Part shown: in pieces, positions 17,228-51,578 of the stretch
Numbering within the stretch: position 1 is the stretch's first letter
Layout of the letters: the number at the start of each line of letters is the position of its first letter
Origin: Elusimicrobiota bacterium
Lineage (GTDB): Bacteria; Elusimicrobiota; Elusimicrobia; UBA1565; UBA9628
Length of the DNA stretch: 64,000 bases
Assembly (NCBI GenBank): GCA_023249675.1
Contig: JAHFCE010000008.1
Location: 39,246-103,245, forward strand
Reading direction: 5' to 3'
The notes under the pieces: model-generated
The model's input: only the letters and a program-made list of their open reading frames with translations
What the model was told of the DNA's origin: nothing
Databases searched by the model: none
Translations under genes and position numbers: made by a program

Positions 17228-17701
17228 TCAAGGATTCCTCGTCGTGGCTTCGACGAGGCGGATCGCGTCGCGGCCTGACTCGCGGACCTCATCGGGGACG
17301 TGGGGGAGCCCCAGTTCGTCATGAGTGTGCCAGCGGATGTCGTCGCTTTCGTCCGGACGGTGGGTGTGGGCGCCGGCCTTGGCGCGCAGGTAGTAGATGA
17401 AGTCAATGTGGTGGTTGTGACCGGGGATTTCCTCGATCTGCACGCGCTGGGGCTCGTGCAGGGACTCGACGCGGCCGTTGTGTATGATCGGCGCGCGCGG
17501 GGGCGTCATGAACTCGGCCTCGAGGCCGGTCTCCTCTAATACCTCGCGCAGAACGCCCTCGTCCGTCGTTTCACCGTCCTCAATGTGTCCGCCCGGAGGC
17601 AGCCACATTCCAAGCTTTTTGTGCTTGAGGAGGAGGGTCTTGCCGTCGCGGACCAGATAGCCGGTGGCGACGAAGCAGTAGCGCCGCGGCGGTGCGCTCA
17701 C
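17228..17701 (-). CDS. NUDIX hydrolase
   Basis: Nudix box GGHIEDGETTDEGVLREVLEETGL. Confidence 0.8.
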   Translation of the reverse strand: MSAPPRRYCFVATGYLVRDGKTLLLKHKKLGMWLPPGGHIEDGETTDEGVLREVLEETGLEAEFMTPPRAPIIHNGRVESLHEPQRVQIEEIPGHNHHIDFIYYLRAKAGAHTHRPDESDDIRWHTHDELGLPHVPDEVRESGRDAIRLVEATTRNP

Positions 17702-18498
17702 GCGGGCAACTCCCGCGCCCAGGCGGCGAGAGCGGCGGCGAGTTCCGCGGGTTTGTCGAGCGGTATGTGGTGATGGGCGTCCATGATCTCAATGCCGCGG
17801 CCGCGCGGCAGGGCCGCGACGACTCGGGTCATGGCCTCGCGGGGCAGGATCGAGCTGTGCTCGCCGCGCACGATCAAGGCGTCCGCGGAGATTTTCGCAA
17901 GCTGCGGCCACACCGGGCCGTACGGAAAAGCAAACGAGCGCCAGTCGAACTTCCAGGACCAGCCGCGGGGGCCTTGCCGCACGCCGTGGCGCCCGAGCGC
18001 TCGGAGAGCGGCCGCGTCGAGCAAGGTGCCGGGAGGCTGGAGGCGGAACTTGGCGAGCATCGCTTCTTCATTCTCGTAAATCGGCTGGGGGCGCGAGCGG
18101 GTTTTTTCGTACTTGCGCTCGCGCGACGCGTAGACATCCGGCAGAAAGTCGATCGCGCAGACTCCGCGCAGGTGAGCGCTGCGCCGCTCGGCGTAGTCGA
18201 GGGCGATGCGCGCGCCCATCGAGTGCCCCACGAGAATGAAGCGCTCCCAGCCGAGGGCCTTGCGCGCGCTCTCGATATCGTCCACCCACGCCGAGCCGGT
18301 ATAGGCTTCGTTCTCGAGCCAGTCGCTGTCGCCGTGGCCGCGGAAATCGAGCGCGACCGCGTGGAACACGCCCTTCCAGAGGGGAGCGACCGCATCCCAC
18401 CAATGCGTGTGCGCGGCCATGCCGTGCGTCAGGAGGACCGGGACTCCGGGGCCGCCCCAGTCGCGCAGGTGGACCGCGCCGGCCTTGCGGCTCGTCAC
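17698..18498 (-). CDS. Alpha/beta hydrolase fold protein
   Basis: GHSMG nucleophile elbow. Conserved HG oxyanion region. Confidence 0.7.
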   Translation of the reverse strand: MTSRKAGAVHLRDWGGPGVPVLLTHGMAAHTHWWDAVAPLWKGVFHAVALDFRGHGDSDWLENEAYTGSAWVDDIESARKALGWERFILVGHSMGARIALDYAERRSAHLRGVCAIDFLPDVYASRERKYEKTRSRPQPIYENEEAMLAKFRLQPPGTLLDAAALRALGRHGVRQGPRGWSWKFDWRSFAFPYGPVWPQLAKISADALIVRGEHSSILPREAMTRVVAALPRGRGIEIMDAHHHIPLDKPAELAAALAAWARELPA

Positions 18499-21400
18499 GG
18501 CGCCTTGTCGGCGGGGACGATCGCGGCCTGATAGATCTCGTCGTAGGTCCGCACGGCCGTGAGCTTGACGGCGTCGCGCACCTCCTTCGGGATACCCTCG
18601 AGGTCCTTGAGGTTGGCGAAGGGGAAGATCACTTCCGTGTAGCCCATGCGGTGCGCGGCCATGACCTTTTGCTTGAGGCCGCCGATCGGCAGGACGTCGC
18701 CGCGCTTGGTGATCTCTCCGGTCATCGCCAGGCCGGCAACGACCGAGCGTCCGGTGAGATCGCTGAGGATCGCCGTGACCATCAGGCTGCCCGCCGAGGG
18801 CCCGTCAATCTTGCCCGCCGGCGTGATGTTGATGTCCATGTCGATCTTCGTGAAGTCGATCTTTTCGAGGCCGAACTTGGCCGCGTTCTTCCTCACGTAG
18901 GCGTACGCGTTCTTGGCCGAGTCCTCGATGTCTTGGCCGAACTGCTTGCGCAGGGTCAACTTGCCGGTGCCGGGCTCGCTCCAGGCCTCGACGTTCAGCG
19001 TGGAGCCGCCGTAGTCGTTGACCGCGAGTCCCGTCGCCACGCCGACGCCGTTCTGCGCCATCTGGCGCGGGCTGAACTCCTCGCCGCCGAGGTAATGCGC
19101 GATGTCTTTTTCGTCGACGACGCCGGGGACGTTCTCGCCGCGCGTCTCGATCCAGGCGGAGATTTTGCGCAGGACGGACGCGACTTTCTCGCGCAGCCCG
19201 CGCACGCCGGCCTCCATCGTGTAGCCCTCGATGAGGCGGCGCAGGGCCCCTTTCGTCAGCGTCGCCTCAGCAGCTTTGAGACCCGCCTCCTCGAGCTCCT
19301 GAGGCACGAGGTGGCGTTCGGCGATCGCGATCTTTTCGAGCGTCGTGTAGCCCTCGAACTCGATGAGTTCCACACGGTCGCGCAGGGGCCCGGGAATGTT
19401 GCTCAGCTCGTTGGCGGTGACGATGAACAGCACCTCGGAGAGGTCATAAGGAACGTCCAGGTAGCGGTCGCGGAAGGTGTTATTCTGCTTCGGGTCCAGG
19501 ATTTCGAGCAAGGCCGCGGTCGGGTCGCCGGCGTTGCTGTTGCGGCCCATTTTGTCGACCTCGTCCATCAGCATGACGGGATTGACCGTGCCGGCGGCCC
19601 TCATCTGGCGCATGATCTCGCCGGGCATCGAGCCGACGTAGGTCCGGCCGTGTCCGCGCAGCACCGTCTCGTCGTGGACGCCCCCGAGCGAGAGGCGCAC
19701 GAACTTTCGGCCGAGGGCTTGGGCGATCGCGGCGGCAATCGAGGTCTTGCCCACGCCGGGGGGGCCCGTGAAGGCGATGATCGCACCCTTCTTGGACCCC
19801 GTCCTCTTGCGCACCGCCAGGAACTCGAGCACGCGCTCCTTGACCTTCTCCAGGCCTGCGTGATCCCGGTCGAGCGTCCCGCGCGCCGCCGCGATGTCGG
19901 TCACGTCCTCCGTGCGCCGGCTCCAGGGGACGTCTATCAGCCACTCAATGTAGGTCCGAACCTTCTGCGTCTCGGAGTCCCTCGGGGCCATCTGCGCCAT
20001 CTTCTCGTACTCGCGCGTGGTGATCTCTTGGATCGCCTCGGGCATGCCGATCGCCTTCATCTTCGCCTGGAGGGCCTCGATCGAGTCGAGGCTTCCGCCC
20101 CGGCCGTCTTTGGGGTCCGCGGCTCGATGCTCCGCCGGCTTTTTCAGCACGCGAACCCACGTCGAACGGTTGCCGCGTTTGCTGAACTTTAGATTTTCGA
20201 TGAACGCCCGCGTCAGCTCCGCGCCGCGCGCGAGCTCGGCGTCCTTCTTGTCGCCGACCGCTTTCCGGAGCACTTCGAGCGTCGCGACCGCGTCGAGGCC
20301 CGCGGCGAGGTCGGCGCCGATGTTCTGGCGCCGTTCCGCGGCATAGTGGACGTTGGACAGCAAGGACAGGCAGAGTCGGACGACGTCGAGCGGGTCTTTG
20401 GAGAGGGAGCTGCCCAGGGTTTTCTCGTACAGACGCAGCGAGCTCGTGATCGCCTCGAGCTTCGCATTGCCGAGCGCGATCGAGACCTGTTCAAGCGCCT
20501 TGGACTTCGGGCTCAGGCCCTTGTGTGCGGAGTACTTCTTGAAGACCGCGTCGAGGCGCGCGACCGCGCGCAGGTGGCTGGCGGCGTCGGGCGCGTTGGC
20601 GAGCTTGATCGCGTCGATCGCCTCGTTGTGCAGCTCCCAGATGTTGTCGGAGCTGTTCCCGGCCTGCTCGATCAGATCGAAGTAGACGACCTTGCCGTTG
20701 GCGAGAACGAGAAGCTCGCCGCGCGCGGCCAGAGCGAAGATCGCCGCGTTCATCTGCGGCATGTCGAGGCCCAGGGCCTTGCCCGCGCGAGTGAGCGTCT
20801 CGGGCGCGACGGTCTCGCCGGCGGAGGTATGCGCGCGGATCTGTGCGGCGAAGGCCGCGGTCTGCTGGCCCGAGGGCGTCCACGATTCCTCGGGCGCGGG
20901 CGTTTTGGACGTCGGCCCTTCATATAGGAAATCGCGGGCGTCGAATTGTTCAAGCAGAAGGAGTGCCGCGATATAGCCGTCGGCGACCTCGTCCTCGGCG
21001 GGGCGGCCGTCCTTTTTCAGCGGATCGAGCGAGTCGACCAAGGCGACGAGCTTGCGGTGCACGCGCGCGGGCATCGGCGGGACGTAGCCGGCCTGATAGG
21101 TCGCCGTCTTGAGCCACGCGAGGGCTTCCGCCAGGTCGGCGACGCGCTCTGTCAGCTTCGGCGTCAGGGTTTTGAGGCTTTCGAGGTCCTTCTTATGCGC
21201 GCCGAGGAACCCCGAGAAGAACTCGAGCATCGCATTGGCGCGCAGGACCTTGGCTTCCTCGAGCTGGGGAAGCGTCTGGCCCGGTTGGCCGGCCTTCTCG
21301 TAAGCGGCGACGGCCCGGTCCGCTTGGGCGACGGCGCGGGCGTGGTCGGCGGGATTGGCGCTGTTCAACAGCGCGACGGCGTTGCTGGCGAGGACGTCGG

Positions 21401-22103
21401 CGGCGTGTTCGGGGGCGGGCGCATGGGCGGGGGCGTCTACGCGCGCGCGGAAACTGAAGTAAACCGTGTCTTTGTTGTCTCGCATCGCGAGATGGCCCTC
21501 TTGGAGTAGCTCGGTGAACAAGGTTCCGGTTTTCTCCGGGTCGAGGCCGAGCCTCGCGCCGATCTCGCCGACCTTCGCGTAGGTCGCGATCGTGCCCGGC
21601 GCCGTTTCGTTGCGGATGCCGGCGAGGAGCCCGGCCTTGGCGTCCGGCGGCGCGTTCCCGCCGGGGGGCGCGGTCTTCTCGGAGCGAGGCAGGGCCTTGG
21701 GGCCGGAGCTCTCGGAACCGGCGACGTCGAAAGCCGCGGCGCGGCGTTCGGACGCGCCTTCAAACGCGCGGCCGGCCTGCGCCTTCGATTCGCTACCGCT
21801 TGACGTCGGCGTGAGCGTTACGGTTTGGCGCGCCGCGCCCGCGAGCGCCGCGCGCGGATCGGGGGTTGCGGCCTGCGCCGCTGTAGGCGCCGTGAGCAGA
21901 GATGGGGTCAGCCCCGCCGCGGACGCAGTGAGCGGCGGCGTGTTCGTCGCGGGGGCCTCAAGTCGCGGGAGCGCGAGCGACATGGTGAGTCCCGCTTCGC
22001 CCGCGACGGGCACACGCGCGACGCCCGTTGCGAAGGCAGGCCCGGGCGCCGCCATGGAAAGGGCGAGGGCGGCCGCCAGGCATCGGCGGGTGAACCGTCT
22101 CAT
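18495..22103 (-). CDS. lon: LonA-type ATP-dependent protease with atypical N-terminus (signal-like segment, A/P-rich linker, two winged-helix-like module repeats in place of the LON N-domain)
   Basis: AAA+ (GPPGVGKTS) and protease Ser (DGPSAGS). LonA linker motif (YIEWLIDVPW). N-terminus is MRRFTRRCLAAALALSMAAPGPAFA followed by low complexity. Confidence 0.85.
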   Translation of the reverse strand: MRRFTRRCLAAALALSMAAPGPAFATGVARVPVAGEAGLTMSLALPRLEAPATNTPPLTASAAGLTPSLLTAPTAAQAATPDPRAALAGAARQTVTLTPTSSGSESKAQAGRAFEGASERRAAAFDVAGSESSGPKALPRSEKTAPPGGNAPPDAKAGLLAGIRNETAPGTIATYAKVGEIGARLGLDPEKTGTLFTELLQEGHLAMRDNKDTVYFSFRARVDAPAHAPAPEHAADVLASNAVALLNSANPADHARAVAQADRAVAAYEKAGQPGQTLPQLEEAKVLRANAMLEFFSGFLGAHKKDLESLKTLTPKLTERVADLAEALAWLKTATYQAGYVPPMPARVHRKLVALVDSLDPLKKDGRPAEDEVADGYIAALLLLEQFDARDFLYEGPTSKTPAPEESWTPSGQQTAAFAAQIRAHTSAGETVAPETLTRAGKALGLDMPQMNAAIFALAARGELLVLANGKVVYFDLIEQAGNSSDNIWELHNEAIDAIKLANAPDAASHLRAVARLDAVFKKYSAHKGLSPKSKALEQVSIALGNAKLEAITSSLRLYEKTLGSSLSKDPLDVVRLCLSLLSNVHYAAERRQNIGADLAAGLDAVATLEVLRKAVGDKKDAELARGAELTRAFIENLKFSKRGNRSTWVRVLKKPAEHRAADPKDGRGGSLDSIEALQAKMKAIGMPEAIQEITTREYEKMAQMAPRDSETQKVRTYIEWLIDVPWSRRTEDVTDIAAARGTLDRDHAGLEKVKERVLEFLAVRKRTGSKKGAIIAFTGPPGVGKTSIAAAIAQALGRKFVRLSLGGVHDETVLRGHGRTYVGSMPGEIMRQMRAAGTVNPVMLMDEVDKMGRNSNAGDPTAALLEILDPKQNNTFRDRYLDVPYDLSEVLFIVTANELSNIPGPLRDRVELIEFEGYTTLEKIAIAERHLVPQELEEAGLKAAEATLTKGALRRLIEGYTMEAGVRGLREKVASVLRKISAWIETRGENVPGVVDEKDIAHYLGGEEFSPRQMAQNGVGVATGLAVNDYGGSTLNVEAWSEPGTGKLTLRKQFGQDIEDSAKNAYAYVRKNAAKFGLEKIDFTKIDMDINITPAGKIDGPSAGSLMVTAILSDLTGRSVVAGLAMTGEITKRGDVLPIGGLKQKVMAAHRMGYTEVIFPFANLKDLEGIPKEVRDAVKLTAVRTYDEIYQAAIVPADKAP

Positions 22104-25100
22104 TTCTTCCTCTCTGCCGTGAACGCGCCCTTGGCGGCGTTCCAGTCCACAGTGATCGCATCGCCCTGAGCGATGCGGTCCTCGAGCTCGGCCGCGACGA
22201 TTGCGTCGGGCAGCTTGTGGTCGACAATCTGCTTGAGCGGGCGGGCGCCATATTTCTGGGCTTCGGTGCGCTTGAGAATCTCGGCGCGGGCGCCGGGCGT
22301 GAGCGTCATTCTCATGCTGCGCTTCTCCCGGAGTTGGTTTTCGAACTTCTTTAGGAGGAGATCAAGAATCTTTTCCATCTGGGGCCTGCCGAGGTCTTTG
22401 AACACCACGACCCCGTCGTCCTCGCCGACGCGGCCGATGAGTTCCGGCCGCAGCGCGGCCCGAAGCGCGGCAAGGTACTGCGCGTGCCGCGCGGCCGCGG
22501 CTTCCTCGGGCTGCTCGCTCCCGGAGCGAAAGCCCATGTGGGGGCGCCCGGGCGAGTCGACGCCCTCGTCGTCTCCGGCGAGCGCGCCGCCGATGTTCGA
22601 GGTCATCATGACGATCGTGTGGGAGAAGTCCACTGTGCGGCCACGGCCATCGGTGAGCCGCCCGTCCTCAAGGATTTGCAGGAGGATGTTCAACACCTCG
22701 GGGTGAGCCTTCTCGATTTCGTCGAACAGGATGACGGAGTACGGGTTGCGGCGGATTTTTTCGGTGAGCTGGCCGGCCTCCTCGTAGCCGACATAGCCGG
22801 GGGGCGCTCCGACCATGCGGGAAACCGCCTCCTTGCCTACGTACTCGCTCATGTCCAGGCGAACCATCTTATTCTCCGAGCCGAACACGATCCTCGCCGT
22901 TTGGCGCGCGAGCTCGGTTTTGCCCACCCCTGTCGGGCCGAGGAAGATGAATGCGGCGGTCGGCTGTTTGGGATCGCGCAGGCCCATGCGGCCGCGCTGC
23001 ACGCCCTTGGCCACCTTTGAGACCGCCTCATCCTGGCCGATCACGGCCGCGCCGAGCTTTTCGGGCAGGTTCTTGAGCCGGTCCTTTTCCGCGGCGCTGA
23101 TCTCGCCGGCGGGAATACCGGTGCGCCGGGAGATTTCCTGGGCGATGTCTTCCGGAAGGACCTCGCGCCGCGCCTTCGCGGCGCCTGACTGTGCGGCCAA
23201 GGAGGCCCTCATCTTGACTGCGACGCTCGCGTCGTCGAGCAGGTCGAGGGCCGAGTCGGGAAGGTTGCGGTCCGTGATGTAGCGCAAGGCCAGCGCCACG
23301 ACGGCCTTCACCGTTTCCGCGCCGATCACGACTCCTTGCTTTTTTTCGTAGATCGACTTGACGCCCGCGACGATGTGTTCAGCCTCCTCCTGAGTTGGAG
23401 GCAGGAGCTGGATGGGGTTGAAGCGGCGGGCAAGCGCGCCGTCCTTCTCGATCGTGCGGTACTCATCCAACGTCGTCGCTCCGATCAGCGAGATCGAGCC
23501 ATCGGCGAGGGCGGCCTTCAACATGTTGGCGGCGTCCTGCGTGCCTTCCTTGATGGCCCCGGCTCCGACGAGCGTGTGGATCTCGTCGATGAAGAGACGG
23601 ACCTTTCCCTGCGAGTCGCGGGCCTCTTGTATGATTTTGACCATGCGTTTTTCGAAGTCGCCGCGAAAAGTCGTGCCGGCGACGACCGCGGCGAGGTCGA
23701 GGTGGATGATGTTGACGCCCTCAAGTTCGGGGATCTTTCCGTCGACGATCATCTGCGCCAAGCCGTTGACCATCTCGCTCTTGCCCACGCCCGGCGCGCC
23801 GATGATGAGGGGATTGGTTTTCTTGAGGCGCAGCAGGGTCTTCACGATCTGGAGCATCTCGGACTCGCGGCCGATCAGCGGGGGCAGTTTGCCCTCGACG
23901 GCGAGGCGCGTCACGTTGGCGCCGTAGGCGTTGAGCGCCGTGTAACTCTTGTCGTCCTTCGCGATAAGCGGGAACAGCCCGCGGCGGATATTGGCGACCG
24001 GGATCAGGTCGATGTCGTTGCCGGGAAGCGGCGCGCCCTTGTGGAATGCCTGGAACAGGGCCCAGCCGGCGGACATGGCCTTCTGCTGGTCGGGGTCCCA
24101 GTGCTGGAACGGCGGGAGCTTCACGGCGAATTTGGCGAGTCGAGCCTGTTTGTCGGCATCGAGCGGCGTTGGATCGGCCTGATTAGCGGCATAGAATTGG
24201 CCCTCGAGCGCCTTCAAGACGTCATCGATGAACGCGTGCGCGTTCTGGTTGACCGGGTCCGCGGGCTTCACGGGGAGCTTCTTGCCGTACGCGGAGAGCA
24301 CGTCGCGCGAGAGTTCGAGGGCCGCGTTCTTATAGAGGATGGCCACTTCGGCGCGGGCCGCGTCGGCGCCGGCGGCCGCGAGGAGGCGCAGGGCTTCGCC
24401 GAAAGAGGCGAGGGCGAGCACGTGAGAATCCGGGCTGCGGCCGTTGAGCAGGTCGATGCCCTCGATTGTCTTTTCGTTGGCCCCATCGAGCAAGGTGTCG
24501 TTGGCCCGGGCTCCGTCGTCGCGCTGGACCGCTTGGCTGTAAATGTAGACGCGGCCGGAGAAAAGACGGACGAGCTGGCCTTCCTTGGCGAGCTCGTCGA
24601 CCGCCCGGTTGCCCTGGGCGGCCGGCACGCCGGCGCCGATCGCGAGCTGGTTGATGCGCATGCGGTCGAGGGCCTCTCCGGGCTTCACATTTTGGGCCAG
24701 CGCGTCGCGCATCGCTTGGACCTGGTCGGCGGTCGGCTTGGCCGGTGTGGGGTCGCTTGCGGCGGCGGCGGAGCGCAGCGGGGTCAGAGCGGAGAGCACG
24801 TCGAACCTTTCCCCGCCTTCGAAGGCGGCGGCGGCGGCGGACTTGGACGCGCTGGGACTCAGCGCCGGAGTGAGGTTCTGGGCCGAGAGCGCGGCGCCAT
24901 CGAGAACGGCCTTGGCGGCGGCCGGCTGGCCCTGGGCGGGGATCGCGGCTGCAACGAGACCGGCCGGCATCGGAGCGGAAAGGGGCGTCTCCGCGGGGCT
25001 TGCGGGTGAAAGCGTCGCGGGAAGTTTCGGCGTCATGGAGAGGCCGCCGAGCGTGGCGCCGATGGCGCCGACTGTTCCGGAGGCGGGGACCGCGGCCCCC

Positions 25101-25225
25101 CGGGCTTTGCCCACCTGGGCGAAGGCCTCGTGATTTCCTGGAAGCGCGACGAGGAAGGCGGCCAGAAGAGAGCGGGACAGGAGGGTCGAGGGGCGGCCGT
25201 TCATCTTTTTCATGAGTGTCTCCAA
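22100..25225 (-). CDS. ClpA/ClpB-family double-AAA+ unfoldase with atypical N-terminus homologous to that of the adjacent Lon
   Basis: D1 (GAPGVGKSEMV) and D2 (GPTGVGKTELAR) AAA modules with a short inter-domain linker (ClpA/C-like). N-terminal signal-like segment MKKMNGRPSTLLSRSLLAAFLVALPGNHEAFA. 4-nt overlap with lon. Confidence 0.85.
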   Translation of the reverse strand: METLMKKMNGRPSTLLSRSLLAAFLVALPGNHEAFAQVGKARGAAVPASGTVGAIGATLGGLSMTPKLPATLSPASPAETPLSAPMPAGLVAAAIPAQGQPAAAKAVLDGAALSAQNLTPALSPSASKSAAAAAFEGGERFDVLSALTPLRSAAAASDPTPAKPTADQVQAMRDALAQNVKPGEALDRMRINQLAIGAGVPAAQGNRAVDELAKEGQLVRLFSGRVYIYSQAVQRDDGARANDTLLDGANEKTIEGIDLLNGRSPDSHVLALASFGEALRLLAAAGADAARAEVAILYKNAALELSRDVLSAYGKKLPVKPADPVNQNAHAFIDDVLKALEGQFYAANQADPTPLDADKQARLAKFAVKLPPFQHWDPDQQKAMSAGWALFQAFHKGAPLPGNDIDLIPVANIRRGLFPLIAKDDKSYTALNAYGANVTRLAVEGKLPPLIGRESEMLQIVKTLLRLKKTNPLIIGAPGVGKSEMVNGLAQMIVDGKIPELEGVNIIHLDLAAVVAGTTFRGDFEKRMVKIIQEARDSQGKVRLFIDEIHTLVGAGAIKEGTQDAANMLKAALADGSISLIGATTLDEYRTIEKDGALARRFNPIQLLPPTQEEAEHIVAGVKSIYEKKQGVVIGAETVKAVVALALRYITDRNLPDSALDLLDDASVAVKMRASLAAQSGAAKARREVLPEDIAQEISRRTGIPAGEISAAEKDRLKNLPEKLGAAVIGQDEAVSKVAKGVQRGRMGLRDPKQPTAAFIFLGPTGVGKTELARQTARIVFGSENKMVRLDMSEYVGKEAVSRMVGAPPGYVGYEEAGQLTEKIRRNPYSVILFDEIEKAHPEVLNILLQILEDGRLTDGRGRTVDFSHTIVMMTSNIGGALAGDDEGVDSPGRPHMGFRSGSEQPEEAAAARHAQYLAALRAALRPELIGRVGEDDGVVVFKDLGRPQMEKILDLLLKKFENQLREKRSMRMTLTPGARAEILKRTEAQKYGARPLKQIVDHKLPDAIVAAELEDRIAQGDAITVDWNAAKGAFTAERKK

Positions 25226-47198: not shown

Positions 47199-50100
47199 TC
47201 AGCGCAGTTGGCCGTTGATCCAGAAGATCAGCGCCAAGGCCGCGATGATCCCGGCGAGCGCGAACGCGCCGAGAACGCCCGTTGCGGCGAGCGCGCCCAC
47301 GAGGAGCCAGCCGGCGAGGCCGAGTGGCGCCCACGAGGTCATCAGCATGACGCCAAGGCCGATCACAGCGCCCGCGATGCCCCACGCGAAGAAGGACGCG
47401 GCGGTTTTCTTTGCCGAGCGCCACGTGCGGTCCCAATGCCGGCTCGCGTCCTGATCGACGATGGGAGACGGGATCGGGCCCCCGCTTTTCGCCGAGCGGT
47501 AGGCGACGACGAGGCTGCGGACGTAGCCGACCCAGCCTGGGATCGTCGCCGCGAAGGCCGCGACGATGGTGGCGGGAAGAATATTGGCCATGCGGATCCA
47601 GCCGTCCGAGATCGCGGCCTCGCCTTCGGGGAATTGGAAGCGGTCCGTGAGCTGGTTTAAGCGCTGCATTTCGGCGCGCAGGGCGCCGTACGTCCAATGG
47701 TCGAGGTAGCGCTGGGCCGGGCCGCCGATGTCCGCGAAACGGAAAGCCAGCGCGACCGAGGAGGTCAGCGCGTACGGAGCGGCCACGAGAACGCCCGCGG
47801 CGACGCCGACCAGGCCGAACGCGACGCCGAGGACGAAGGCGACAAGCTTGAGAAACGCGTTGCCGAGGAAGCCCAAGGCTCCCGAATATTTAAAGTCGTC
47901 GGCGACGACATGCTTGAAGTACGGGCGGCCCAGGATCAGCGCGCCGAAGGCGGCCGAGCCGATTATGCCCGAGACGAGCCCGGCGAGGAAGCCGAACACG
48001 AAGGGCACGATACGGCGCAGGACCTTCATGGCGGTCTCGAAGGCGGTGCGCAGGAAGGGGAGCATCTCGTAGACGACCTGGCGCGCGCCTGCGTAGGCGG
48101 CGGAAGCTCCGACGGACGCGACCGCGAACGCGGCTCCGGCTTGGGCCCAGGCGAGGCCGAGCGTGCCGCCGATGGCGCGGTACACAGGCTCCAGACGCAC
48201 GGCCTTGCCGGCTGCGGTCCAGTAGTCGAGCGAGAGACTGAAGCCGGCCTGCGAATGGTCGACGGCGCTCGGGAGTAGGCGCGTCCACAGCAGGGGCTGG
48301 GACACGGCAAGACCGGCGGAGAGGCCCGCGAGGGCGGCGAGAGGGGAGATCAGGGGCAGGCCGAGGGCGACCGCGGCGTAGACCCCGGCGGCGAGGCCGA
48401 GAGCGCCGAGTGTCGCGGCAAGCCACACGGGCGGCTTTCCGACCGGCGCCTGCTCTGTCTTGGGAGCGGGTGCTGCAGGGGCTTCATAGGAAGAAGCCCG
48501 TTCGGCTTCGGGCTTGGACTTGGCCAGCCTCGCGTCGGCGAGGCTGCGCAGGTAGGCGACTCCTCCGGCGACGACCAAGGCGATCGTCGAGGGGATCGCG
48601 GCGAGGAGGAAGCTGACCGTGCGCACGTACAGGCGCCAGATCGGCAGTTCGGCGCCTTCGGAGCCGAGCTTGATTGTGACCACATCGCGCGCCTGACTCA
48701 GCGCGTTTGGAAGCGAGCGGCGATCCCAGGTCCGGAAATACTTTTCAGACGCCTCGCCCGTGCCGGCCCAGCGCACGCCGAGCGACAGGCCGTGGGTGAG
48801 CGCGACGGGAATGCCCGCGATCACCCCGACGACGAAAGAACCGACAAACACCGCGAGCGCGGGCACGACTAAGGTCAGTGCCATCAGCACTCCCGCGCTG
48901 ACCTGGGCCCCGGACGGCCTGGAGCGCAGGGCGTCCTCACGCTTGAAGATTTCGCCCATCGGGCGGAACAGGTTCGTGGCGACGAAGAAGCCGGATTTGA
49001 GCGCGCCCAAGAGGGTTCCGAAGATAAAACCAGGCACGAACGGCACGATGTTTTTCAGGACCTTGACGGCCCAGTTGAAGAAGCGCTTGAGGAAGGGAAC
49101 GAACTGCGTCACCACGGCCATGAAGCCGGTCCACGCCGCGGCGCCGGGCTTGGCGGCCGCGCCGAGCAGGCCGCCGATCAGGCCGGACAGGGGCGCGGCG
49201 AAAATGGTGAGAATGTAGAGGGACTCCGACTCTCGTAGAGTGGCGTCGCCGCGAAGCATGGCGGCGTAGATCCGCTGATTGGCATCGATCCAGCCTTCGA
49301 ATGACTGTTTGGTGGAGAGGCCGCCTTCCGAGATCACATCGGACAACCAGCCGGACAACACCTGAGGCTGGCTCAGAGCCAAGCCTAAGCCTGCGCCGGC
49401 GAGGCCGCCCAGAACTCCGTACGCCAGGACGCCGGCGCCCGCGCCGATCAGGCCGAGCATAGTGGGCGCGACGAAGCCGGGTCGCGGGGTGACCGCAGGT
49501 TCGGTTCCGGTTTCACCGGTCGAGCGCGAGGGGGTGTCGGCGCGCTTGACGTCCACGCCGTGCAACGCGGCGCTCGTCGCGCGGACGATGGTTCCGATCG
49601 AAACCAAGGGCAGCCAGAGCGCCGTATAAAGGGAGATGGCGGTCCCATTGAGCGCGCGGGTCGTGCGCGCGGCCAAAGACAGGTTGTCTTTCGCGAGCGG
49701 GAAGCCGCGTTCAATAAGGACGCTGAAGGCGCCGTCATTTTTGACGGCGAGTACCCAGCGCTTGAAGAACGTCGCGCCCGCATCATTGACGCCGGACCAG
49801 GCGAAGGCGTTCAAGAGCGCGCCCATCATGACGTGCACGGGGCTGACGAGCAGGCCGATCGCCGTGCCGAGAGCACCCGTGACGACGATCGCCGCGAGCG
49901 CGGCCACCTGTGTTAGGCGGTAGGCGACCCAGCCGGGCAAGGACGCGGGCTTGTACGTGGTTCCAAAGGCGTCGCGGGCGATCGGACCGGCGAGAAGAAC
50001 CGCGCCCACGCTGGCGCCGGCGAATGCGGTCTTGAGCGCGCCGGTGATGAAGCCGACGATGAAGGGGAAACTGTGCTCGATGACGCGGGTGAGGAAGCGG

Positions 50101-51578
50101 ATCACGCGCTCCATCCACGGCAGGAAGCCGACGATGACCTCGCGCGCGCCGCGGAAGGCGGCGAGCAGCGGCGTGCCCACCACGCGGTAGGCCGCGCCGA
50201 GGGCGAAGGCGATCGGGGACATGACGTAGCCGGCGAGGATGAAGGGCCAAGCGATGACGGGGTATCGGAGAATGTTGGCCGAGAGTTCCTTTTTCATGGC
50301 CTCGTCGGTGGAGCTGCCGCGCAGGACGGAGTCGAAGATCAGGCCGAAGCGCGCCCAGAAGCGGTAGGTCATGGCGCCGGCGGAGACCGAGCTGTTCTTG
50401 AGATCGGTGGGAAAGCCTTTCCATGTTTCCACGGAGAACGCGGCGAAGCCGGCGAGCGCGCCGAGCGCGATCCAGCCGGCCGCGAGGGCGAGAGCGGGGA
50501 CGGCGACGACTGGAGCGAGAAGACCGCCCAAAACGGCGACGGCCCAGGCGGATGTGTACCACGCGGCGGCAGCGCCCGCGGCGGCAAGCGCCAAGCCGAC
50601 GGAGACGCGGGCGTGCGGGGTTTTGGGCGCGTTGTTTGACGGAGGCGCGGAGACGGGTCGTGTTTTGCCGGAGAGAGCATCCGCCTTGTCTGCCTTAATC
50701 TTTTGCGAAGCGGAGGGGGCGTTATCGTTTGAGGGGGCTCCCAGAAACAGAAGGCCTTCTTCCTCCCGGGAAGTCTCCATGGGAGTTCTTGCGGTCACGA
50801 GAGAACGAGCGTAGCTTGAAACCAATTCAGGGTACTTCCCTTGAATCGCTCCTCCGACCGCCATCTCGCTTCCTTCAGGGACCTTTAAAAAGAGGCTGAT
50901 CTCATCAAGCCCCATCCTCTCGGCTTGATCGATTAGAGGATCTGGATCTTGCACCATTTGATGGCCGATGACTTTCAAGAATGCAGCGACTTTCTGCTGC
51001 AATCTTCCTTCGCCCTGCAGAGCGGCGCTCTTGACGTGGAGTATGATCTGGCCGGGCCGGTACTCGATTGCGGCGGGCGCGGACGGAACGGGCAGGCCTC
51101 CTTTGTGAGGACGGGACCCGTCGAAGTGCCTGCGCATTTCGTCGAAGCGAGCCTCAAGAGAAACAGATGGTTCTACAACGGGGATGGGGATGGGATTATT
51201 CGGGGTCAGCGCGGCGGGAACGACGGGCCCGGCGGCGTCAACGGCGACGGATTTCACCGCTGCAGGTAAGGCGGAAGTCTTGAACGACAACGGCGCGACG
51301 GCAACGGAGGGGGCAAGCGGTGTCGGCACGGCGTTCGCGCCGGAGAGCGACAGATTTAAACCCAGTGGGGAACCCGGAGCGAGCGCGGCACCCGCCGACG
51401 GCAAGGACATCTCCACGCGGACGGGGGCACCGTTCATAGCGCCGCCGGTCGTTACCGCTGTCGTCCGCATTTGAGCGACGGCTTGGTAAACGCTTAGACC
51501 TGGGGCGGTTTGGATCAAGACAAAGGTCAGAAACGACGCGACAAAACGGCAGAACGAGGAGCGGGGGAAGTTGGCCAT
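47199..51578 (-). CDS. Giant (1459 aa) polytopic membrane protein: exported Ala/Pro-rich N-terminal region plus three internal repeats of about 340 aa; no recognisable family
   Basis: Signal-like N-terminus. Repeat cores FLTRVIEHSFPFIVGFITGALK (aa about 496), FLKRFFNWAVKVLKNIVPFVPGFIFGTLLGALK (aa about 829), FLRTAFETAMKVLRRIVPFVFGFLAGLVSGIIG (aa about 1175). Confidence 0.6.
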   Translation of the reverse strand: MANFPRSSFCRFVASFLTFVLIQTAPGLSVYQAVAQMRTTAVTTGGAMNGAPVRVEMSLPSAGAALAPGSPLGLNLSLSGANAVPTPLAPSVAVAPLSFKTSALPAAVKSVAVDAAGPVVPAALTPNNPIPIPVVEPSVSLEARFDEMRRHFDGSRPHKGGLPVPSAPAAIEYRPGQIILHVKSAALQGEGRLQQKVAAFLKVIGHQMVQDPDPLIDQAERMGLDEISLFLKVPEGSEMAVGGAIQGKYPELVSSYARSLVTARTPMETSREEEGLLFLGAPSNDNAPSASQKIKADKADALSGKTRPVSAPPSNNAPKTPHARVSVGLALAAAGAAAAWYTSAWAVAVLGGLLAPVVAVPALALAAGWIALGALAGFAAFSVETWKGFPTDLKNSSVSAGAMTYRFWARFGLIFDSVLRGSSTDEAMKKELSANILRYPVIAWPFILAGYVMSPIAFALGAAYRVVGTPLLAAFRGAREVIVGFLPWMERVIRFLTRVIEHSFPFIVGFITGALKTAFAGASVGAVLLAGPIARDAFGTTYKPASLPGWVAYRLTQVAALAAIVVTGALGTAIGLLVSPVHVMMGALLNAFAWSGVNDAGATFFKRWVLAVKNDGAFSVLIERGFPLAKDNLSLAARTTRALNGTAISLYTALWLPLVSIGTIVRATSAALHGVDVKRADTPSRSTGETGTEPAVTPRPGFVAPTMLGLIGAGAGVLAYGVLGGLAGAGLGLALSQPQVLSGWLSDVISEGGLSTKQSFEGWIDANQRIYAAMLRGDATLRESESLYILTIFAAPLSGLIGGLLGAAAKPGAAAWTGFMAVVTQFVPFLKRFFNWAVKVLKNIVPFVPGFIFGTLLGALKSGFFVATNLFRPMGEIFKREDALRSRPSGAQVSAGVLMALTLVVPALAVFVGSFVVGVIAGIPVALTHGLSLGVRWAGTGEASEKYFRTWDRRSLPNALSQARDVVTIKLGSEGAELPIWRLYVRTVSFLLAAIPSTIALVVAGGVAYLRSLADARLAKSKPEAERASSYEAPAAPAPKTEQAPVGKPPVWLAATLGALGLAAGVYAAVALGLPLISPLAALAGLSAGLAVSQPLLWTRLLPSAVDHSQAGFSLSLDYWTAAGKAVRLEPVYRAIGGTLGLAWAQAGAAFAVASVGASAAYAGARQVVYEMLPFLRTAFETAMKVLRRIVPFVFGFLAGLVSGIIGSAAFGALILGRPYFKHVVADDFKYSGALGFLGNAFLKLVAFVLGVAFGLVGVAAGVLVAAPYALTSSVALAFRFADIGGPAQRYLDHWTYGALRAEMQRLNQLTDRFQFPEGEAAISDGWIRMANILPATIVAAFAATIPGWVGYVRSLVVAYRSAKSGGPIPSPIVDQDASRHWDRTWRSAKKTAASFFAWGIAGAVIGLGVMLMTSWAPLGLAGWLLVGALAATGVLGAFALAGIIAALALIFWINGQLR

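Follow-up and report, generated by a model that had tools for sequence, protein, structure and literature searches.

A Clp and a Lon protein of an Elusimicrobiota bacterium with a common signal-peptide-like leader and a common N-terminal module

AAA+ proteases are cytoplasmic or cytoplasm-facing machines, and a locus of an Elusimicrobiota genome (assembly GCA_023249675.1, 2.6 Mb, 98.6% complete) raises the question of why two of them should begin with what looks like an export signal. The stretch analyzed, hereafter the window, comprises 64,000 nucleotides (nt) of contig JAHFCE010000008.1 and carries on its minus strand a Clp gene (Clp1, protein P0001; 22100-25213, 1037 amino acids (AA) from the ATG at 25213) and, downstream of it, a Lon gene (Lon2, protein P0002; 18495-22103, 1202 AA). 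Both proteins are built in the same order, a leader, a tail, a module present once in Clp1 and twice in Lon2, and an engine, which is a ClpA/C-type double AAA+ ring in the former and a LonA-type AAA+/S16 protease in the latter. The pair bears a conserved export-type signal without a stop-transfer segment, and this signal is found in relatives also on a complete LonA (LonFull), several Clps and an FtsH-like protein. As a tentative answer, to which we give a probability of roughly 40%, we propose that these engines are accessory, envelope-addressed Clp(-ClpP) and Lon machines which would work at the cytoplasmic face, the module being their recognition domain.

Domain anatomy of the two proteins

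The leader of Lon2 (22029-22103, minus strand) starts with MRRFTRR, continues with a hydrophobic core of ~12 AA and ends in P-G-P-A-F-A; that of Clp1 (25118-25213, minus strand) starts with MKKMNGR and has a basic n-region, a core of likewise ~12 AA, a Pro-Gly pair and A-F-A followed by Q, matching our leader profile A2. By inspection both show the n-, h- and c-regions of a Sec signal peptide, with a helix breaker and small residues at -3 and -1 (A-x-A), and can be called Sec-type signal-peptide-like, in line with the export-signal-like start that the preliminary description of this DNA gave them. A bona fide secretin of the genome displays the same PG...ALAQ style of c-region. A weakly Tat-like T/S-R-R-x-L is found in Lon2 (as T-R-R-x-L) and its two-module relatives, Clp1 and the one-module relatives having a single Arg, not a twin; TatC is present in the genome. 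No lipobox Cys was found near the predicted cleavage sites of either protein, and an accessory Sec system was discarded, as the genome has one SecA and one SecY. In A2, an alignment of 22 leaders, P20 and G21 are the sole invariant columns, and a basic residue often appears within ~6 residues after A-x-A-Q.

Next comes a tail of ~125 residues in which Ala, Pro, Ser, Thr and Gly abound. In Clp1 (24740-25117, minus strand) it is Ala/Pro/Ser/Gly-rich, predicted to be disordered, and holds an F-E-G..FDV motif at 24797-24823; in Lon2 (21642-22028, minus strand) it is Ala/Pro/Thr-rich, with A-F-E-G..ERR..FDV at 21723-21764. The AFEG..ER..FDV motif noticed earlier in both N-terminal regions is therefore common to them, in BLASTP as well as by sequence, and the Phe of F-[DE]-G hardly varies across 17 one-module relatives. 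An AlphaFold2 model of the Clp1 N-terminal region, in which docking of F-[DE]-G on the module was looked at as an arrangement that would put both on one side of the membrane, gave most of the tail a predicted local distance difference test score (pLDDT) below 50. No meaningful model for leader plus tail was found in NCBIfam at E<=5.

These N-termini are not an artefact of open reading frame calling, since the leader is kept in relatives, with a ratio of non-synonymous to synonymous substitution rates (dN/dS) of 0.27 for the Lon2 leader against its closest relative, and ribosome-binding sites precede both ATGs; leader and tail (dN/dS 0.56 for the Lon2 tail) are conserved at the protein level, and a true start located further downstream was rejected. 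The start of Clp1 is most likely the ATG at 25213, with GGAG 6 nt upstream, the TTG at 25225 being an unlikely choice. In the range 18495-25225 originally given for the pair both minus-strand reading frames are real, and its upper end probably has to be moved to 25213.

Pfam and NCBIfam matches begin only at ~AA 424 in Clp1 (AAA+/ClpB_D2-small) and ~AA 666 in Lon2 (AAA/Lon_lid/Lon_C). Upstream of these points neither canonical N-domain was recovered, confirming their earlier reported absence: Clp_N gave no match in Clp1 (Pfam, NCBIfam) and LON_substr_bdg (PF02190) none in Lon2, both at E<=0.1. The Clp1 engine (22103-23950, minus strand; Pfam AAA, AAA_lid_9, AAA_2 and ClpB_D2-small) comprises rings D1 and D2 with intact Walker A and B motifs in both. 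It aligns to ClpA in a single stretch starting at ClpA residue ~161-170 and therefore has no M-domain; its scores lie far under the equivalog cut-offs of both ClpA (582.6 vs 993) and ClpB (649.7 vs 1232). In alignment, the sequence HMGF (M-G-F at 22529-22537) falls on the VGF loop with which Bacillus subtilis ClpC docks to ClpP, at a position where Thermus thermophilus ClpB has no such tripeptide, so Clp1 keeps a predicted ClpP-docking loop. ATPase motifs are intact throughout the family, and of the 21 family Clps examined 19 retain the [MIL]GF loop. One of the two Clps without it, the metagenomic P0040, is fused to its own M48 protease; in P0040 and in another metagenomic relative, P0053, the leader/module Clp is joined to a C-terminal multi-pass region, which in P0040 ends in Peptidase_M48.

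The Lon2 engine (18498-20099, minus strand; Pfam AAA, Lon_lid and Lon_C) consists of a short helical neck, an AAA+ module with Walker A GPPGVGKTS, a lid and an S16 protease domain, Lon_C being covered from 2 to 204 of 205 positions. It scores 630.5 against TIGR00763 (cut-off 608.05, model positions 254-794) and 500 bits against B. subtilis LonA (3m6a) across the whole engine, and its catalytic Ser (DGPSAG) and Lys (GGLKQK) align with those of 3m6a, leaving the dyad intact. The sole PF02190 match of the genome is the housekeeping Lon on contig 8, to which the Lon2 engine is 49% identical. This Lon, with its LON N domain, adjoins a ClpP gene, and elsewhere the genome also encodes another ClpP and a ClpC-like protein that bears Clp_N-type repeats; the window pair is therefore an extra set. 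Neither full-length ClpP gene (two strong CLP_protease matches) has room for a leader. With ATPase motifs, Ser-Lys dyad and ClpP-docking loop all preserved, the topology paradox stays. A role in anti-phage defence was rejected after a PADLOC search, which yielded partial AAA+/Lon-domain likeness only, for example to BrxL over the protease part.

Between tail and engine lies the module, of ~255 AA, at 23951-24739 in Clp1 and at 20874-21641 (copy 1) and 20100-20873 (copy 2) in Lon2, all on the minus strand. The three were delimited by BLASTP and alignment: the Clp1 N-terminal region matches that of Lon2 with E=8e-8 (copy 1) and 5e-6 (copy 2), and the Lon2 copies match each other with E=4e-8, so the shared module of about 250 AA, single in Clp and double in Lon, stands as first described. 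Nine columns are invariant in a 19-row alignment including relatives (A1). AlphaFold2 confidently models the module as a winged-helix-like start (three helices and two strands) followed by a bundle of ~7 helices, with pLDDT 88 and a predicted template modelling score (pTM) of 0.85 for copy 1 (model m89e4162b62fb) and pLDDT mostly 77-97 for the copy in Clp1, a secondary structure that agrees with the winged helix suspected earlier. The module has no match in Pfam, NCBIfam or the sequences of the PDB. Its best Foldseek match in the PDB is weak (E=0.05, GntR/FadR-type regulators), VIA-align reached Z 6.3 with generic helical proteins, and the ESM Atlas gave at most 0.81 for features and a template modelling (TM) score of at most 0.35 for shape. 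A known domain was discarded on these grounds, all fold matches lying below TM 0.5, and the data support a genuine and as yet undescribed domain that starts with a winged helix.

Distribution of module and leader, and exchange of engines

Searched with a profile of 19 modules, 1.84 billion representative proteins yielded 50 clusters (E<=0.001). Where an engine could be recognised it was almost always Clp and in a few cases Lon, and nearly all begin with a leader of this kind. Of 301 genomes sampled from the phylum, 13 have the module, including that of the window, all belonging to two families of one order. Leader matches occur in 14 of the 301 genomes sampled, confined to essentially the same order, and the homologues named at NCBI are likewise from Elusimicrobiota.

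The preliminary description treated leader and linker as particular to these two proteins. A pattern scan followed by a search with A2 showed that about 27 open frames of this genome bear the same leader and tail. Where the cargo has a domain that can be recognised, it is for the most part proteolytic, comprising an FtsH-like AAA+/M41 protein, an M48 protein, proteins combining M50 with S8, S8 with HEAT repeats and an Rce1-like domain with a DegP-like trypsin-PDZ part, and a full-length homologue (L008; contig 22:15065-17248, minus strand) of the chlamydial protease CPAF (CT858), matching PDB 3dor/3dja over residues 169-725 with E~8e-74. Two Fic proteins, a PLD protein of four domains and a HAD hydrolase also carry leader and tail. 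Leader plus tail is thus a genome-wide, clade-specific address label strongly enriched on proteases. Further membrane segments follow the tail in most of these proteins; none follows it in nine, namely Lon2, Clp1, the CPAF homologue, both Fic proteins, the PLD protein and three proteins without recognisable domain (L006, L016 and L019). In the FtsH-like and M48 leader proteins the parity of the membrane spans looked ambiguous on inspection.

In relatives the locus is recognized by a syntenic block running from an acyltransferase gene to an alpha/beta hydrolase gene and then to MOSC, GAF, cNMP-binding and NUDIX genes. Most genomes of the genus have three AAA+ genes there, encoding a leader-tail-LonA of full length, a leader-tail-one module-Clp and a leader-tail-two modules-Clp, and two metagenomic relatives have LonFull, Lon1 and Lon2. 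The leader-tagged LonFull, complete with a LON N domain (L001:3837-6635, L002:4210-7011 and L032:4109-6865, all minus strand), lies directly upstream of the module genes, carries the tail motif R/S-F-D-G and has no later membrane segment; the genome of the window lacks this gene. The sets found in relatives at this locus are Lon+Lon, Clp+Clp or Lon+Clp+Clp, and the window has Clp1 and Lon2 only. The N-terminal region of Clp1 is 35% identical (E=7e-35) to that of a one-module Lon, P0015; the N-terminal regions are orthologous by position, and Clp and Lon engines have been swapped beneath them between genomes. A dedicated unfoldase-protease pair, as suggested at first, is too narrow a description for such a locus.

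At this locus the Lon engines share 75-91% identity among themselves and 46-49% with the housekeeping Lon, and in one genome the engine of the one-module Lon is closest to that of its own neighbour, which fits exchange between tandem copies. The neck of the Lon engine holds the SLDSIEALQAKMK helix, and a presumed recombination junction lies just before this helix. On the contig of the closest relative a Clp gene lies directly upstream of Lon2, in the same order as in the window. The Lon gene of this relative (L047:825-3014) changes frame just past the start of the neck and ends early, being either an assembly frameshift or a pseudogene. Compared with Lon2 of the window, its synonymous divergence (dS) is ~0.55 in leader and tail and ~0.25 in the modules, a hint of recombination within the gene.

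Where the engines may work

No hydrophobic segment was found between leader and engine in either P0001 or P0002. Most two-module relatives and many distant one-module ones do have a segment of ~19 AA between tail and module, and the two-module Clp of the locus has it wherever its N-terminal part could be read. In these relatives a basic flank precedes the hydrophobic segment, and a short loop, acidic or neutral, joins it to a second, conserved segment of 11-18 residues with the sequence LPxLxxAGT; in Clp1 the region aligned to this second segment is polar. From the alignment, the window pair appears to have lost the membrane segment, and leader, tail and engines stay conserved despite that loss. 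The paradox raised in the preliminary description, that of ATP-dependent enzymes placed behind an export signal, is hence genuine, the leader being kept in relatives under dN/dS 0.27 with a ribosome-binding site in front. Its scope is another matter: for the window pair it is real, but in most two-module and many distant relatives the hydrophobic segment could give an FtsH-like topology. If read as a single span, this region could confer the topology of FtsH or HtpX and the paradox would be gone for the relatives that have it; if read as a hairpin proper, tail and engine would lie on the same side.

In the reading we favour, the pair would be accessory AAA+ degradation machines beside the housekeeping set, in which the module would take the place of Clp_N or the LON N domain as the protein-binding part, for a substrate, an adaptor or a partner. 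Leader and tail would address the machine to the cell envelope, in a layout resembling FtsH/HtpX (a first hydrophobic segment, an extracytoplasmic loop, a second membrane segment and a cytoplasmic engine), and the engines, Clp as a partner of ClpP, would run on ATP on the cytoplasmic side of the inner membrane, pulling on membrane-proximal substrates. In favour of this, some leader proteins (the FtsH-like AAA+/M41, the M48 and the M50 plus Clp proteins) are membrane proteases whose catalytic parts face the cytoplasm in known families; the module, among matches with a recognisable engine, is found only before Clp or Lon; and the ClpP-docking loop is conserved, the ClpPs themselves having no leader.

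Several observations weigh against this proposal. The leader looks like a working Sec signal, with its basic n-region, core of 12-14 AA, A-x-A followed by Q and secretin-style c-region, and it is equally kept on proteins without any later membrane segment (Clp1 and Lon2, LonFull, the two Fic proteins, the PLD protein and the CPAF homologue), which on the usual rules would be exported whole. In the relatives a strongly basic flank leads into the hydrophobic segment and an acidic loop follows, a charge pattern more in keeping with a hairpin whose two ends share one side than with a single out-to-in span. The proposal does not account for how the window pair, its membrane segment lost, would stay on the ATP side, and the recognition role of the module is one that we infer from its position and charge alone. 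None of the readings tried fits all the topology facts together.

It is possible, and we allow it a real if minor chance, that the proteins are secreted AAA+ effectors: the leader would indeed work as a Sec signal and the soluble proteins that bear it would leave the cell, for instance through a secretin pathway, to act inside another cell (bacterial prey or a protist host) that supplies ATP and a ClpP, while the weakly hydrophobic hairpin of the relatives would insert in a membrane of the target, its two ends facing the target cytosol. The leaders kept on proteins without any later membrane segment would be explained in this way, as would a charge pattern that sets both hairpin flanks on one side and the tolerated loss of the hairpin. 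The cargo also has an effector-like side (the CPAF homologue, with E=8e-74 to 3dor, the two Fic proteins, which likewise need a nucleotide co-substrate, the four-domain PLD protein and an animal-type haem peroxidase), three secretins are encoded in the genome, the syntenic block includes a SWIB-domain gene, and the Plasmodium protein HSP101, a signal-peptide-bearing Clp-type ATPase at work outside the parasite membrane, is also among the PDB matches. Yet a secretin pathway alone does not deliver into another cell, no FHIPEP gene (type III/flagellar export) was found in the genome, the sole match to the ATP/ADP translocase family lies below the family cut-off, and there is no sign of a host, the DNA coming from groundwater metagenomes. 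Most leader proteins are, moreover, multi-pass membrane proteins that could not be secreted, so leader plus tail is not effector-specific. No secreted bacterial Lon or Clp is known to us, and literature searches found none; among the papers listed for exported AAA+ proteases none appeared, judged by title and abstract, to describe one, and no paper was found combining Elusimicrobia, Lon and signal peptide. Conceivable but doubtful, too, is a wider scenario in which one order of Elusimicrobiota doubled almost all of its proteases (Lon, Clp, FtsH, HtpX-type, S2P-type, DegP-type and S41) and tagged this second set, together with Fic and PLD proteins, with one label; its soluble members, such as this Clp and Lon, would then truly leave the cytoplasm and work in an ATP-containing compartment outside, either the cytoplasm of another cell, with Clp docking on the ClpP of the victim, or an energised extracytoplasmic space.

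The opposite view, that the leader is not an export signal at all, would make of it a short hydrophobic helix which, with its invariant Pro-Gly turn, lies on the cytoplasmic leaflet, so that tail, module and engine would all be cytoplasmic and the hairpin of the relatives an optional extra anchor with both ends inside. Pro-Gly as the only invariant columns of the 22 leaders, the basic residue frequent after A-x-A-Q, the basic N-flank of the hairpin, and a second hairpin segment that is polar wherever the first has been deleted, as fits a topologically neutral loss, all agree with it, as does a crude and noisy charge-bias count on the multi-pass leader proteins (9 for a tail inside, 3 opposed and 1 neutral, with false segments picked up), though no weight is put on it. 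We hold it to be unlikely nonetheless: a secretin is headed by the same style of leader, which also heads normally extracytoplasmic families (S41/CPAF-like, S8, trypsin-PDZ and haem peroxidase), the polar residues past Pro-Gly would not be able to form another membrane arm, and we know of no precedent for such an anchor. Residence in the periplasm, the proteins being exported whole and either soluble or tethered by an uncleaved leader as a second set of envelope proteases, would account for the signal-peptide features and for the likeness of the leader set to an envelope protease network (DegP-like, S41, S8, M48 and M50), but would call for an unknown energy source or for ATP-independent action, and no ATP pool is known in a bacterial periplasm. 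The Walker motifs and the ClpP-docking loop are kept though ClpP has no leader, and hairpin flanks outside would break the positive-inside rule, which together make this distinctly unlikely. Very improbable, finally, are DNA-associated machines brought by their winged helices to the nucleoid or to specific operators. The AlphaFold2 secondary structure and the GntR/FadR-type identity of the best structural matches, weak as these are (Foldseek E=0.05, Atlas TM 0.35), would suit such a role, and nucleic-acid recognition had been suggested for the module; but TM-scores stay below 0.5, Pfam gave no helix-turn-helix family match, and DNA binding is unlikely because the winged-helix part is acidic to neutral (isoelectric point ~5-7 in most copies) and its third helix has a net charge of 0 to -4, being negative in 17 of the 19 copies.

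Set beside known systems, Lon2 shares with Escherichia coli Lon and B. subtilis LonA (3m6a) the AAA+ module, the lid and the S16 domain with its Ser-Lys dyad, and differs in having a signal peptide-like leader, a tail and two new modules instead of the LON N domain. Clp1 resembles ClpA/ClpC in its two AAA+ rings, D2-small domain and MGF at the VGF position, and ClpA in having no long M-domain, but begins with such a leader, a tail and one new module in place of Clp_N repeats. The layout of most two-module relatives is that of FtsH/HtpX, and FtsH-like and M48 proteins share the leader here; unlike FtsH, the engine is Lon or Clp and not AAA+/M41, the extracytoplasmic part would be a disordered tail and not a folded domain, and the window pair has no second membrane segment. 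HSP101, of the PTEX translocon, is a signal-peptide-bearing Clp-type ATPase that acts beyond the parasite's own plasma membrane; it shares with Clp1 the Clp/Hsp100 ATPase (PDB matches 6e10/6e11), yet is eukaryotic, ClpB-like, without a ClpP loop and part of a defined translocon. GntR/FadR-type proteins and PCI-type modules, the best though weak matches of the module, also join a winged helix to a helical bundle, but at TM 0.2-0.35 and Foldseek E>=0.05, with no sequence family match and with an acidic surface on the side of the module.

The possible outcomes differ in what they would mean. One would imply that the rules by which signal peptides are read fail for a class of ~27 proteins, affecting every secretome prediction for the clade; the other, ATP-dependent proteolysis outside the producer's cytoplasm, would be new for bacteria. 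Whatever the topology, a new N-terminal module, with a putative role in recognition, is defined for Clp and Lon, as is a clade-specific, strongly protease-enriched address label, and engines swapped under a constant N-terminal region provide a natural experiment on the combination of AAA+ specificity domains with motors.

Gene neighbourhood and other leader proteins

Clp1 and Lon2 open a run of four minus-strand genes (17228-25213) in the order Clp, Lon, alpha/beta hydrolase and NUDIX hydrolase, each stop overlapping the next start by 4 nt, as in a translationally coupled run; the 4-nt overlap of Clp stop and Lon start, already reported, reads ATGA. The alpha/beta hydrolase gene (17698-18498, minus strand), which has no leader, overlaps the Lon stop by 4 nt, and the NUDIX gene (17228-17701, minus strand), also present in the syntenic block of the relatives, overlaps the alpha/beta hydrolase stop likewise. 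An alpha/beta hydrolase gene lies 3' of the second AAA+ gene wherever the 3' flank was recovered (the window and 7 relatives), and a lipid A acyltransferase gene lies upstream of Clp1. A promoter and terminator scan of the operon returned nothing above chance. The window DNA is present in four groundwater metagenome runs, all from one study and all of DNA; no RNA run was among the public runs listed with this locus. A small SWIB-domain gene, of a kind rare in bacteria outside Chlamydiae, lies downstream of the AAA+ genes in the syntenic block (L002:18953-19210 and L005:11261-11518).

A third leader and tail protein of the window (47199-51578, minus strand; 1459 AA, leader profile E=3e-4) adds to the 27 open frames. 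It gave no match in Pfam or the PDB, and its leader differs very little from that heading the HAD-domain protein on contig 3. The protein L048 (contig 54:6090-16185, minus strand; 3346 AA), combines an M50 piece with a complete Clp double ring at ~1977-2617; its leader is signal-like and ends in MPVAAQ without Pro-Gly, its tail holds a TFDG motif, and leader-headed frames of ~3200 AA recur in relatives. In the leader-tagged L009 (contig 24:3204-6659) an animal-type haem peroxidase precedes two hydrophobic segments and a region with weak, sub-cut-off Pfam likeness to caleosin, an unusual, eukaryote-like combination. L015 (contig 33:28582-36915; 2777 AA) joins VWA, TPR and DUF58 domains, as if parts of a Bat-like aerotolerance operon had been fused, and has a second signal-peptide-like stretch at about residues 150-185. 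In L014, a leader protein of 1932 AA (contig 25:191693-197491, minus strand), the repeat [KR][KR]-D-G-A-N-G-G occurs in at least 4 copies (KKDGANGG three times and RRDGANGG once), each followed directly by a hydrophobic segment.

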